Assembly: GCA_963778815.1 (NCBI GenBank)
Contig: CAVZVS010000002.1
Span: 344,879-408,878, forward strand
Direction: 5' to 3'
DNA length: 64,000 bases
From: an uncultured Chloroflexia bacterium
GTDB taxonomy: Bacteria; Chloroflexota; Limnocylindria; Limnocylindrales; CSP1-4
Made by a program: the position numbers and the translations under genes. Below, in pieces: positions 6,429-12,270 of the stretch. Under the pieces are notes generated by a model. That model was not told the DNA's origin. It was given only the letters and a program-made list of their open reading frames with translations, and did not search any database. The first letter of the stretch is position 1; every line of letters starts with the position of its first letter.

Positions 6429-6930
6429 GTGACTGAGCAGGTCCGGCTCACGGTCAATGGGATCCCGAGGGAGGTGGAGGTCGAGCCCAGGCGACTCCTC
6501 GTGCAGACGCTGCGCGAGGACCTCGGGCCTGACCGGGACGCACGTCGGCTGCGACACCAGCCAGTGCGGCGCGTGCACCGTCCATCTCGACGGCCGGGCG
6601 GTCAAGTCGTGCTCCGTCCTGGCCGTCCAGGCCGACGGCCACGCCGTGACCACCATCGAGGGCATGGCGCCCGAGGGCGGCCTGCATGCGATCCAGACCG
6701 CGTTCTGGGAGAAGCACGGACTCCAGTGCGGCTTCTGTACGCCGGGCATGATCATGGCCGCGGCCGACCTCCTGGAGAGCAACCCGGATCCGACCGACGA
6801 CGAGATCCGGCACGCGATCGAAGGCAACATCTGCCGCTGCACGGGCTACCACAACATCGTGGCGGCGATCCGCGAAGCGGCCTCCACCCTGCGCGCCGGC
6901 ACCGACGTGCCGGCCGGCGCCAGTGCCTGA
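6429..6930 (+). pseudogene. coxS: form II CODH/XDH-family small subunit (2Fe-2S, CoxS-like) with a +1 frameshift
   Basis: GTG at 6429 lies 10 nt after AGGAGG. The N-terminus [33 protein letters not shown] is in one frame. The rest, [18 protein letters not shown]...[10 protein letters not shown]...CRCTGY (ORF 6457..6930), is in another frame. A 1-nt indel lies at about 6515-6520 (ctcGGGcct). The intact paralog is at 17395. Confidence 0.7.
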
Positions 6931-6945
6931 CAGGAGGCCCATGCG

Positions 6946-9348
6946 ATGACCACCGAGGTACTCGGCGCCCCGATCAAGCGGGTCGAGGATCCGCGCTTCA
7001 TCACCGGCAAGGGTCGCTACCTGGACGACATCCAGATGACCGGGATGACCTACATGGCCATCCTGCGCAGCCCCTATGCCCACGCCGACATCCGCTCGAT
7101 CGACACGTCGGCGGCCAAGGCCATGCCCGGCGTGCATCCTGGTCCTGACCGGAGCGGACGTCCCCTACAACCCGCTGCCGATGGCCTGGCCGGCCGGCGG
7201 CTCCTCGGGCATCCAGAACAACATCAACATGCCCCGGGCACTCGCCACCGATGACGTCAAGTGGACCGGCGAAGGCGTCGCCGCGGTCATCGCCGAGACG
7301 CCCGAGCAGGCCGTCGATGCGACCGAAGCGATCGTCGTCGAGTGGGAGCCGCTGCCGGCGGTCGTCGACACCGAGAAGGCGACCCAGCCGGGCGCTCCCC
7401 AGATCCATGAGAACGCCCCCAACAACGTCGTCTTCGAGTGGACCGTCGGGGACAAGGCCGGGACCGACGCCGCGGTCGACGACGCCGAGGTCGTCGTCCG
7501 CCAGCGGATCGTCAACCAGCGGCTCATCCCCAACCCGCTCGAGGTCCGCGGCGACATCGGGCTGTACAACCCGGGCACCGAGGAGTACACGGTCTGGATG
7601 TCGAGCCAGACGCCCGCACATCCAGCGGCTCCTGCTGACCGCCTTCGTGACCGGCATCCCGGAGCACAAGGTCCGCTGCATCTCGCCCGACGTGGGCGGC
7701 GCCTTCGGCACCAAGATCTTCTGCTACGCGGACATGGCCCTGGTCATGCTCGCCTCGAAGCTCGTCGGTGGCCGACCGGTCAAGTGGGTCGAGACCCGCC
7801 GCGAGAACTACCAGTCGACCATCCACGGGCGCGATCACGTGACCTACCTGGAGATCGCCGGCAAGCGCGACGGCGAGGTGACCGGGCTGCGGGTCAAGAC
7901 CTACGCCAATCTCGGCGGCCGCCTGTCGACCATCGGACCGGGCATCCCGACCACGCTCTACGCGCGGGTCCTGTCGGGCTGCTACAAGATCCCCAACGTC
8001 TACTGCGAGGTCACCGGGGTCTACACCAACACGGTCTTCGTCGACGCCTATCGGGGGGCCGGTCGGCCGGAAGCCACCTACGTCATCGAGCGGGCGATGG
8101 ACCTGTTCGCCGCCGAGATCGGGATGGATCGAGCGCGAGCTCCGGCGCAAGAACTTCATCGCTCCGGACGCCTTCCCATACGACAATCCGTCGGGCCTCG
8201 GGACGGCGGTCAACGGCGAGAAGATCTACATCGACTCCGGCAACTACGAACCGGCCATGGACAAGGCCCTGGGCATCGTCGGCTATGCCGATCTGGCCAA
8301 GGCCAAGGCCGAGGCCCGGACCCGCGGCAAGCACCTCGGTCTCGGCTTCTCGACCTACCTCGAGGTGTGCGGCGTCGCGCCGTCGAAGTGGATCGGGGCG
8401 GTCGGCGAGGGCTGGGGCGCGGCGATGTGGGAGTCGGCCAACCTCAAGGTCCACCTGACCGGAAAGGTCATCCTGACCATGGGTACCCAGCCCCAGGGCC
8501 AGGGCCACGAGACGACCTATTCCCAGGTCATCGCCTCGGAGCTCGGGCTGCCCATGGACGACATCATCGTCCAGCACTCCGACACCCAGGGCACGCCGTT
8601 CGGCTACGGCTCGTACGGCAGCCGGACGTCCTCGGTCGGCAGCACGGCCGCGATCAAGGCGGCGGGCAAGGTCCGTGAGAAGGCCCGGCGCTATGCCGCT
8701 CATATGCTCGAAGCCTCGGTCGACGATATCGAGGTGATCGGCGCGGAGTATCGGGTCAAAGGCTCGCCCGAGAAGAAGAAGACCCTCCAGGAGATCGCCT
8801 TCGCGCTCGACCTGGGGTTCAGCCTGCCCGACGGGATGGAGCCCTATCTCGACGAGACCGCCTATCACGACACGCCCAACTGCACCTGGCCGTTCGGGAC
8901 CCACATCGCGGTGGTCGAATTGGACGACGACACCGGCAAGGTGGACCTGGTCCGCTACGTCGCGGTCGACGACGTCGGCAACAAGATCAACCCGATGATC
9001 GTCGATGGTCAGCTTCACGGCGGGATCGCCCAAGGCGTCGGCCAGGCCCTCTGGGAGCAGGCCGTCTACGACGACGCCGGGCAGCTCCTGTCGGGCTCGA
9101 TGCTCGACTACGCCCTGCCCCGGGCGTCGTGGCTGCCGGATTTCGAGCTCGACGAGACGGTCACCCCCTCACCGGTCAACCCGATCGGGGTCAAGGGCGT
9201 CGGCGAGGCTGGCGCCATCGCCAGCTCGGCGGCCGTCGCCAACGCGGTCATCGATGCGCTGGCACCGTTCGGGGTCCGCCATCTCGATATGCCGTTCACC
9301 GCGCCGAAGGTCTGGCGCGCGATGCACTCCCAGGAGGCCCGGTCGTGA
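6946..9348 (+). pseudogene. coxL: form II CODH/XDH-family large molybdopterin subunit (CoxL-like, AYRGAGR type) with 3 frameshifts
   Basis: ATG at 6946 follows cAGGAGG. Collinear homology to the intact paralog (17922..20309) is split over frames 1→2→3→1 across ORFs 6946.., 7076.., 7251.., 8257..9348. Breaks are at about 7135, 7615 and 8130. Motifs VDAYRGAGRPEATY and GTQPQGQGHETT are present. Confidence 0.75.
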
Positions 9349-10225: not shown

Positions 10226-11309
10226 GTGCGGCTCGAACGGATCGTTCCCGGAGACACTGCGCCAGCGGACGTCGACGGAGCGGTCCTCGTCCGTGACCTC
10301 GTGGTCGACGGCGAGCGCTGGTCGAAGGGTCGGCGGCTGACCGCAGCCGACCTGAGGACCCTGGCCGCTCCTGGGGTGGTCGTCGCGGGCGAACCCCGGG
10401 CCCTGGCCGATGCCGGGATCGCCGTTCTCGTGCCCGAGGCGGACGACCTCCACGAAGACGACGCTGCGATCCGCCTGGCGGCGGCGGTCGCCGGTCCCGG
10501 CCTGACCCGGCGCGGCCCGGCCGAGAGTCGGGTCGACCTGCTCGCTGCGACCGATGGCCTGCTCCATGTCCGGGCCGACCTGGTCGAGCGGATGGACCGG
10601 ATCGATCCGGTCGAGGTGTTCACGTTGTTCGACGGCCAGGTGGTCCGGGCGGGCGATCTGGTGGCCAGCGTCAAGGTCGCCCCGCATGTGGTCCCCGCGG
10701 AGGTGGTCGCCCGGGCCGAGCGGGTCGCCCGGCGAGCCGGCTCGCCCGGGGTCGTTCGGGTCGTGCCGTTCGTCCGACGCCGAGTGGCCGCCCTGGTCAA
10801 GGAGTCCGTCCACGCGCCGGCGCGGGAGCGCTTCGAGGCGAGCGTCAGGCTGAAGGTGGAGTCGCTTGGCTCGGAGCTGGTCGCGGTCGTCTACGTGGCC
10901 GACGCGGCAGATCCGGTGACCGACGCTCTGCGTTCGCTGGCCCGGGGGCGCGGGCCGGATCGGGCCGACCTCGTCCTCACCGCCGGGTCGGCCAGCACGG
11001 ACCCCGAGGATCCCTTCTACGTCGCGATCGAGCGACTCGGCGGCCGGGTGGTTCGCCACGGCGTCCCGGCCCACCCCGGCTCGATGCTGTGGCTGGCCCG
11101 GATCGGCCGGACGGACCTCGCTCGGCCTGCCCTCGTGCGGCGCCTACTCGAAGGCGACGGCGGCCGATCTGCTCCTGCCCCGGCTGCTGTCGGGCGAGCC
11201 GGCCAGTGCGGCGACCGTCGCCCGGCTCGGCGTCGGCGGGATCCTGACCCGCTCGATGCGCTTCCGCTTCCCGGCCTACGCCCGCGACCTCGACGCACCG
11301 GACGGGTAG
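10226..11309 (+). pseudogene. molybdopterin-binding (MoCF_biosynth / MoeA-CinA-like domain) protein with a frameshift
   Basis: GTG at 10226. It carries a DLVLTAGSAS motif. After a frame change at about 11105-11125, a GLPSCGAYS...LLLPRLLSG segment (cf. GLPGNP) is read, ending at TAG 11307-11309. Confidence 0.5.
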
Positions 11310-11392
11310 ACTCCACGCCATGCCCGACCCCGAAGACCGGACCGCCGCTCCCGCCCCGGTCGGCCGACGACCGCCCGGACAGCACCCGTTCG

Positions 11393-12270
11393 GTGGACGG
11401 CATCGTGGCCAGCTTCCGGGCGGCCGACTACATCTGCGACCGCTCGCTGGGGACGGCCGTCTTCCTGGCCCTGGAACTGGGTCGGCCGCTGCTTCTCGAG
11501 GGCGAGGCCGGCGTCGGCAAGACCGAGCTGGCCAAGACCCTGGCGACGACCTGGGCACCCGCCTGATCCGGCTCCAGTGCTACGAGGGCCTCGACGTCAA
11601 CTCGGCGGTCTACGAGTGGAACTACCCGCGCCAGATGCTCGAGATCCGGCTGCTCGAGGCGGCCGGCAAGGTCGACCGAGCGACGGCCCACGACATCTTC
11701 GGGCCCGAGTTCCTGATCAAGCGGCCGCTCCTACAGGCGCTCGAATCGACCGACGGCAAGGCGCCCGTCCTGCTCATCGACGAGATCGACCGGGCCGACG
11801 AGGAGTTCGAGGCGTACCTGCTCGAGATCCTGTCCGACTTCCAGGTGACCGTGCCCGAGATCGGCACGGTCCGGGCCGAGCAGACGCCGCGGGTGGTGCT
11901 GACCTCGAACCGGACCCGCGAGGTCCACGACGCGCTGAAGCGGCGCTGCCTCTATCACTGGATCGACTACCCGACCTTCCAGCGCGAGTTGGAGATCGTC
12001 CTGACCCGGGTGCCCGAAGCGCCCGACAAGCTGGCCCGCCAGATCGTCGGCTTCGTCCATCGCCTGCGCGAGGCGGACTTGACCAAGGTCCCCGGGGTCG
12101 CCGAGACGATCGACTGGGCGTCGGCCCTCCTGGCCCTCGGAGCGACCGAGCTCCAGCCGGCCCTCATCGACGAATCGCTCGGCGTCGTCCTCAAGTACGA
12201 GGAAGACGTCCGACATGTCCGGGGCGAAGCCGGCCGCCGGATCCTCGACGAGGTCGTCGCCGGCGGCTGA
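11393..12270 (+). pseudogene. coxD: MoxR-family AAA ATPase (CoxD-like) with a frameshift
   Basis: The N-terminus with Walker A, VDGIVASFRAADYICDRSLGTAVFLALELGRPLLLEGEAGVGKTELAKTLA, is in frame 2 (GTG 11393). The remainder, LGTRLIRLQCYEGLD...VLLIDEIDRA...LTSNRT (Walker B, sensor), is in frame 1 (track ORF 11320..12270). The break is at about 11545-11555. The start is uncertain; ATG 11320 is the alternative. Confidence 0.65.

Follow-up and report, generated by a model that had tools for sequence, protein, structure and literature searches.

Eight single-base frame shifts, seven of them extra bases and one a missing base, interrupt five neighbouring genes of a putative form II cox cluster in a 64,000-nucleotide stretch of contig CAVZVS010000002.1 from an uncultured Chloroflexia bacterium (assembly GCA_963778815.1, positions 344,879 to 408,878; the whole stretch is called the window below). 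With a probability of roughly 0.85, these shifts appear to be an artefact of assembly and polishing, and the five genes should be treated as intact. This reading rests on two observations: one-base edits restore proteins that fit their families, and the same signature occurs in metagenome-assembled genomes (MAGs) of the Microflora Danica (MFD) long-read catalogue and not in short-read MAGs. It rests further on the lack of any signal of decay, either in conserved alignment columns or in relative rates. A preliminary description of this DNA had offered two explanations for the breaks: either the form II enzyme was inactivated only very recently, or indel errors make the consensus locally poor. 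The evidence supports the latter; the former finds no support, since the repaired proteins show no relaxation of constraint, nearly all of the indels are extra bases, several of them not of the slippage type, and the signature recurs in sister Nanopore-only MAGs.

The window has a G+C content of about 70%, which makes open reading frames (ORFs) alone weak evidence of coding, and the frame signal was taken from G+C at third codon positions (GC3). The frame switches agree across the GC3 frame plot, three-frame translations, tblastn searches with the proteins of intact orthologues, and DNA alignments with intact orthologous clusters. In the three-frame translation, recognisable CoxS, CoxL, CoxM, MoCF-domain and CoxD sequence resumes in a new frame at each switch. 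An intact syntenic cluster, L001, served as the source of the tblastn queries and of the first DNA alignment, which contains one-base gaps exactly at the frame switches; the exact placement of the indels was taken from a six-way alignment of the window with its five closest relatives, L005, L007, L008, L009 and L011. All seven frame switches claimed in the preliminary description are present, within 11 nt of the positions given there (Table 1), but its count was incomplete, as an eighth shift near the start of coxD had been overlooked.

Table 1. Frame shifts, genes and other features of the window. Square brackets in DNA strings enclose the base or bases concerned; the fourth column gives the approximate position of the shift in the preliminary description.
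Feature	Position	Strand	Preliminary position	Remarks
Extra base no. 1	6528	+	6517	coxS; C in ctcggg[C]ctgacc; private in the six-way alignment
Extra base no. 2	7135	+	7135	coxL; C in ggcgtg[C]atcctg, between G and A
Extra base no. 3	7613	+	7618	coxL; C, CC to CCC in cagacg[C]ccgcac
Extra base no. 4	8135/8136	+	8130	coxL; gagc[GC]gagc, one of the two bases extra
Extra base no. 5	9976	+	9985	coxM; T in ggtga[T]cgacgg, between A and C
Extra base no. 6	11120	+	11115	MoCF gene; G in gacctc[G]ctcggc, between C and C
Extra base no. 7 (eighth shift overall)	11356-11366	+		coxD, low-complexity N-terminal stretch; most likely ggtcggc[C]gac
Missing base	11551	+	11550	coxD; gacgac-ctgggc in the window, gacgac[G/C]ct in relatives
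Upstream regulator	2770..6318	+		Guanylate_cyc + AAA_16 + TPR (Pfam); intact
coxS, putative form II small subunit (2Fe-2S)	6429..6930	+		166 aa after repair
coxL, putative form II large subunit	6946..9348	+		799 aa after repair; AYRGAGR motif
coxM, FAD subunit	9345..10212	+		288 aa after repair; frame 3, then frame 1 as written
MoCF_biosynth-domain (molybdopterin-binding) protein	10226..11309	+		360 aa after repair; frame 2, then frame 3 as written
coxD, MoxR-type AAA+ ATPase	11320..12270	+		ORF open as written, 316 aa
coxE (VWA_CoxE, 481 aa) and xdhC (370 aa)	12291..14872	+		intact; Pfam; one tblastn high-scoring segment pair each
mocA-like gene	14631-16289	+		MobA-like NTP_transf_3 and a weaker C-terminal methyltransferase-like region (Methyltransf_25/11)
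DUF1501 gene	25506-26796	-		extra base near 26510
tRNA-Trp (CCA), ARAGORN call	36802-36897	-		96 nt
DAO-FAO_M-GCV_T-GCV_T_C gene	53053-55506	+		dimethylglycine/sarcosine-dehydrogenase-like; three frames

As written, coxS runs in frame 3 for its N-terminal 33 codons and in frame 1 thereafter (tblastn with CoxS of L001 places residues 1-33 in frame 3 and 33-164 in frame 1), and coxL is spread over frames 1, 2, 3 and 1 according to tblastn, the translations and the frame plot. Seven one-base edits suffice to give clean ORFs for CoxS, CoxL, CoxM and the MoCF protein and to bring the conserved core of CoxD into one frame, and an eighth joins that core to a conserved ATG. After repair every expected Pfam domain is complete and the lengths match those of intact orthologues. 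Repaired CoxS contains full-length Fer2 and Fer2_2 domains and is 95% identical to the intact protein P0124. In repaired CoxL, the Ald_Xan_dh_C, MoCoBD_1 and MoCoBD_2 domains are all full length, and its best homologues have the same length and align with 100% coverage at identities of up to 90-94%. Repaired CoxM comprises FAD_binding_5 and CO_deh_flav_C, and the repaired MoCF protein carries PF00994 and is as long as its orthologue in L085. No stop codons are left in the correct frames of the five genes; both this and the completeness of the domains bear out the preliminary description, which had reported conserved motifs between the breaks and no in-frame stops.

The individual sites lend themselves to precise comparison. 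The insertion at 6528 is compatible with a lengthened run of two bases. At 7135, five of the five relatives read ggcgtg-(a/g)tcctggtcctgac. The repair at 7613 yields SSQTPHIQRLL, a stretch that varies little or not at all among 82 homologues, and that at 8135/8136 yields GMDRAELRR, in agreement with the family pattern GMD-(R/P)-A-(E/A)-(I/L/V)-RR. Around 9976 the relatives read ggt(c/g)a-cgac, and the repaired protein has G-V-V-T-T-V-R-I in place of their G-S-V-T-T-A-R-I; at 11120, the reading of L011, whose flanks are identical, is gacctc-ctcggcctgccctc. One base added at 11551 restores AKTLATTLGTRLIRLQCYEGLD. The insertions at 7135, 9976 and 11120, i.e. at least three of the six that can be placed, copy neither neighbouring base and are thus not products of slippage. 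Long homopolymers, considered as an explanation and rejected, occur at none of the sites, only some of which are short C/G runs of 2-3 bases. A by-eye check of the junctions, which was the only motif search made, found no consistent common motif such as the GATC or CCWGG methylation motifs. Three further one-base indels that are private to the window with respect to the five relatives lie in the intergenic region upstream of coxS, at 6358, 6381 and 6409, the last being an extra G just upstream of an AGGAGG ribosome-binding site; they are indistinguishable from natural intergenic variation at such divergence.

The case of coxD is less apparent, because its ORF is open as written. About 62 of its codons, from about 11365 to 11551, are nevertheless out of frame, and the Walker A motif GEAGVGKT is lost; tblastn with CoxD of L001 matches frame 2 and then frame 1, and the Pfam AAA_5 domain covers profile positions 55-139 as written vs 1-139 in the repaired protein. 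The gene starts with an ATG 10 nt past the TAG of the MoCF gene, as it does in L007, L008, L009 and L011, and in the four closest relatives the ATG that follows the spacer encodes M(S/P)DP...DRP(E/D)(G/S)TRSVDGIV. In the window this ATG is in frame 1 and the conserved stretch DDRPDSTRSVDGIV...GEAGVGKT is in frame 2, which places an extra base at about 11356-11366, where the alignment contains a 7-nt private insertion. The conserved ASFR motif lies 88 nt from the ATG, a distance that is no multiple of 3, and the only start codon in frame 2 is a GTG at 11393.

The breaks can be followed into the public record, where a truncated CoxS of 157 aa and a C-terminal CoxL fragment of 363 aa are called genes on one contig of 418,465 bp (NCBI/ENA); the exact products of coxE and xdhC are called genes in that record too. 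The called CoxS fragment implies that at least the coxS break is present in the deposited sequence.

The best homologues of the repaired proteins are found in MAGs of Candidatus Limnocylindria (Chloroflexota), and many of the relatives are 'MFD...bin' MAGs bearing Flye contig names. The loci of relatives were chosen for an uninterrupted coxL (80 loci from one contig scan), and coxL was consequently left out when the breaks in long-read and short-read loci were counted. A break was scored in the other genes of the cox cluster wherever abutting, collinear tblastn pieces lie in different frames. In the 37 MFD long-read loci (176.5 kb) there are 23 breaks, spread over 12 of the loci, as against none in 159 kb of the 45 loci from short-read MAGs (0/45; Fisher p = 2.2e-5). 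The breaks in the long-read loci go from frame f to f+1, i.e. indicate an extra base, in 20 of 23 cases, compared with 7 of 8 in the window cluster. Two raw Flye contigs, L003 and L004, have 16 breaks in 11.4 kb. These contigs (ENA ERZ25039551 contig_29112 and ERZ25039558 contig_133941, respectively) are metagenome contigs of related Limnocylindria whose cox clusters are shredded, with about 14 breaks per 10 kb, and whose fragments share 90% protein clusters with fragments from the window.

Mutual identities of 92-98% among L005, L007, L008 and L009 allow private indels to be placed exactly in these loci. In L008 (MFD02134.bin.2.85), a Meth_synt_2-like gene carries seven private one-base insertions in a stretch of about 330 bp, and the remainder of the 15 kb is almost free of them. 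Three private insertions and one deletion lie in coxD/coxE of L005, and the short-read locus L009 has no private indels in genes. Relatives with 92-96% identity to L008 and L005, among them L009, lack all of these indels. The insertions in L008 and L005 copy no neighbouring base in 7 of 9 cases. Taken over a somewhat wider interval (about 2880-3330 of L008, corresponding to 2901-3337 of L005), the L008 patch comprises seven insertions and one deletion in about 450 bp and is a denser case of the same signature. Private, patchy, insertion-biased one-base indels are thus a property of MFD long-read assemblies. The Microflora Danica long-read catalogue was assembled from Nanopore reads only, with Flye --meta and one round of Medaka, and its authors checked it for Nanopore-associated errors (PMC12313526); the same group has described how Nanopore consensus indels lead to frame shifts in called genes, and has put the coverage required for a near-finished genome at about 40-fold (PMC9262707). 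The preliminary description had named orthologous loci as a means of checking the breaks, and the comparison turns out as expected of consensus errors: the indels are private to the window, their like is found in long-read sisters, and they are absent from short-read ones.

If the genes had been inactivated, the repaired proteins might be expected to carry further marks of it. With 51-83 orthologues per broken gene, and with a column kept as conserved if at least 97% of the other sequences agree, there are 871 conserved columns in the five genes, at which the window has two private changes, both conservative and both in CoxL (L153I and T760S), and none in CoxS, CoxM, the MoCF protein or CoxD. 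The per-gene medians in the other sequences are 0-2, and the window equals the family median. In Tajima's relative rate test on the five concatenated repaired proteins, with L013 as the outgroup, the window has 49 changes vs 48 in L085 (p = 0.92), and against L007 the counts are 53 and 53. The repaired proteins therefore exhibit neither relaxed constraint nor acceleration of the lineage. The indel spectrum, in turn, is atypical of mutation, in which one would look for slippage in repeats, varied lengths and a bias towards deletions: all events are of 1 nt, and insertions outnumber the deletion by 7:1.

These observations bear directly on the possibility that the inactivation is genuine and very recent, the form II operon having become dispensable and eight real indels having been fixed before any other decay. 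In its favour, the public sequence contains the breaks, which are strongly concentrated in a single operon, while neither the genes on its flanks nor the form I cluster is damaged, and a first polar mutation would leave the rest of the operon neutral. However, the ratio of indels to substitutions in bacteria is roughly 1:5 to 1:20, so that a neutrally decaying operon with eight indels ought to have gained some 40 substitutions or more. Conserved columns take in about 45% of the codons, yet only the two private changes at the median level are found there, with no acceleration of rate. Bacterial mutation is, moreover, usually biased towards deletions, against which seven of the eight events are insertions; every event is exactly 1 nt long, at least three of the insertions are not of the slippage type, and the identical signature is tied to sequencing technology in the relatives. 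We therefore regard a genuine inactivation as very improbable. Equally slender are the chances of its strongest form, in which a burst of insertions without substitutions would recently have silenced the form II operon of a soil Limnocylindria population that kept the adjacent form I. Were the indels real, they would point to an unusual, insertion-specific and locally clustered mutational process, and to the loss of form II function beside a retained form I. Still more remote is programmed recoding, by which ribosomal frameshifting or transcriptional slippage would yield full-length proteins. The correct downstream frame is indeed open at every junction, but recoding would have to operate at eight sites spread over five genes, which occur in a single assembly and lack a common slippery motif; at least 80 orthologous coxL genes and nearly all of their neighbouring genes are uninterrupted at the homologous sites (the loci having been selected on uninterrupted coxL), and these orthologues lead us to discard it.

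If the shifts are artefactual, the five genes would be intact in the organism, and the shifts would be consensus errors left behind in one patch of a long-read contig, most probably one built from Nanopore reads only, with Flye and one round of Medaka. Such a patch might reflect locally poor read support, e.g. low coverage or the mixing of reads from different strains or species across a cluster as highly conserved as this one. A more specific mechanism of this kind, which we consider rather unlikely, is that the consensus mixes two related strains or species and writes both alleles of synonymous polymorphisms in tandem. At 6528, 7135, 7613, 8136 and 11120 a wobble position immediately precedes the extra base, which would be the other G/C allele, and deletion of either base at these five sites gives the same protein; this holds for 5 of the 6 placeable insertions vs 33% expected at random (binomial probability about 0.017 by our own arithmetic, in a post hoc test). 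Both alleles are present among the five relatives at 6528, 8135 and 11120, several related MAGs come from the same samples, and conservation in the region peaks in the cluster, with 82-86% nucleotide identity to relatives compared with 71-79% in the flanks. On the other hand, this mechanism accounts for neither 9976 nor 11551, and the pattern is not replicated in L008 and L005 (4/9, about the null rate), for which reason we retain this mechanism at low confidence only.

Several points weigh against interpreting the shifts as an artefact. The sequencing technology of the window's contig is one that we infer, from a length of 418 kb and a source label (NCBI, ENA) shared with the identified MFD MAG proteins. 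Eight breaks in 5 kb beside clean flanks are at the high end for binned MFD MAGs, in which there are at most 4 per locus; denser examples than the window cluster are the L008 patch (7 in 330 bp) and the raw contigs. An artefact does not by itself account for the choice of this particular patch. The closest relatives of the window, L007, L008, L005, L009 and L085, are at 82-86% nucleotide identity, and no genome of the same species was found in the collections searched; likewise, CoxE, XdhC and the form I CoxM and CoxS of the window are singleton clusters at 90% identity.

The distribution of the breaks is clearly not uniform. We found 11 frame breaks in the window, of which 8 fall in the form II cluster, inside a span of 5.0 kb, and 9 are extra bases; by our own arithmetic, the binomial probability of such clustering is about 2e-7 for a fixed 5.1-kb window. 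The clustering reported in the preliminary description is therefore real, and it does disfavour a uniform random error, as was argued there. It does not disfavour error as such, because long-read errors are themselves clustered, as in L008, where seven insertions are packed into about 330 bp and the rest of the 15 kb is clean.

The three breaks outside the cluster, at about 26510, 54215 and 55225, affect two genes. In the DUF1501 gene, a piece encoding a twin-arginine (TAT)-like signal peptide (RRFLQLGLATGVGAAAA) and the piece encoding DUF1501 are in different frames. The DAO-FAO_M-GCV_T-GCV_T_C gene lacks a base at about 54215 and has one too many at about 55225, and an intact paralogue is located at 45587-48025; its breaks are probably assembly errors of the same kind. 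Elsewhere in the window, a stretch of about 3 kb (about 36800-39860) has a weak codon-position signal and long ORFs without Pfam matches, which is unusual for a genome so gene-dense and high in G+C. ARAGORN calls a tRNA-Trp at 36802-36897 (Table 1), and an Rfam scan of the window at gathering thresholds gave no match and hence no tRNA either; the call may be false, or may stand for an intron-containing or an indel-damaged tRNA.

As to the identity of the cluster, the Pfam domains of the repaired proteins indicate a 2Fe-2S, a Mo-cofactor and an FAD subunit, encoded in the order S-L-M, which is also the order in the orthologous loci. The active-site loop of CoxL is AYRGAGR in form II and AYXCSFR in form I, and repaired CoxL carries VDAYRGAGRPEA. 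By these features, the genes can be assigned to a predicted form II CoxSLM molybdenum hydroxylase cluster; to our knowledge, the substrate of form II enzymes has not been established. A form I cluster, coxM-S-L, is complete at 16.5-20.3 kb, and its CoxL (17922-20309) has AYRCSFR. The six-way alignment and tblastn revealed no frame-disrupting private indels in the upstream regulator, coxE, xdhC or the mocA-like gene, so that the preliminary description was right to call these genes intact; its identifications of the form II coxS-L-M genes, the MoCF-domain protein, coxD, coxE, xdhC and the mocA-like gene were likewise correct. The true start of the mocA-like gene is probably near 14840-14870 and not at the ATG of 14631, which overlaps xdhC.

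Metabolic reconstructions should credit the organism with an intact form II cox cluster, a correction of small biological consequence. Of more general relevance to annotation and genome scanning, tight patches of one-base insertions in windows from Nanopore-only MAGs can mimic a freshly inactivated operon. Such cases can be checked without reads, by asking whether one-base edits restore the length typical of the family, whether there is an excess of changes at conserved columns, and whether the signature occurs in long-read but not in short-read sisters.

Once repaired, the window cluster has nothing unusual about it in comparison with known form II (putative) aerobic CO-dehydrogenase/molybdenum hydroxylase clusters, with which it shares the order S-L-M, the AYRGAGR motif and the subunit domains, and in which genes for an AAA+ CoxD, a VWA CoxE and an XdhC (maturation genes of the xdhC/coxF type) follow, as they do here. 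Its broken state invites comparison with two other known situations. Genuine clusters of pseudogenes in decaying operons of reductive genomes, e.g. that of Mycobacterium leprae, likewise have several adjacent genes frameshifted; however, real decay also substitutes conserved residues, introduces in-frame stops and favours deletions, which vary in length, and the window cluster bears none of these marks. The consensus indel errors of Nanopore-only assemblies and MAGs, as detected by truncated-gene tests of the IDEEL type, break conserved genes by single-base indels just as observed here (PMC9262707; PMC12313526). In both cases the indels are private to one assembly, occur in long-read and not in short-read relatives, and are reverted by one-base edits. 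The classic Nanopore error is a deletion in a long homopolymer, whereas in the window and the MFD relatives examined the events are mostly insertions, often outside homopolymers and gathered in tight patches.

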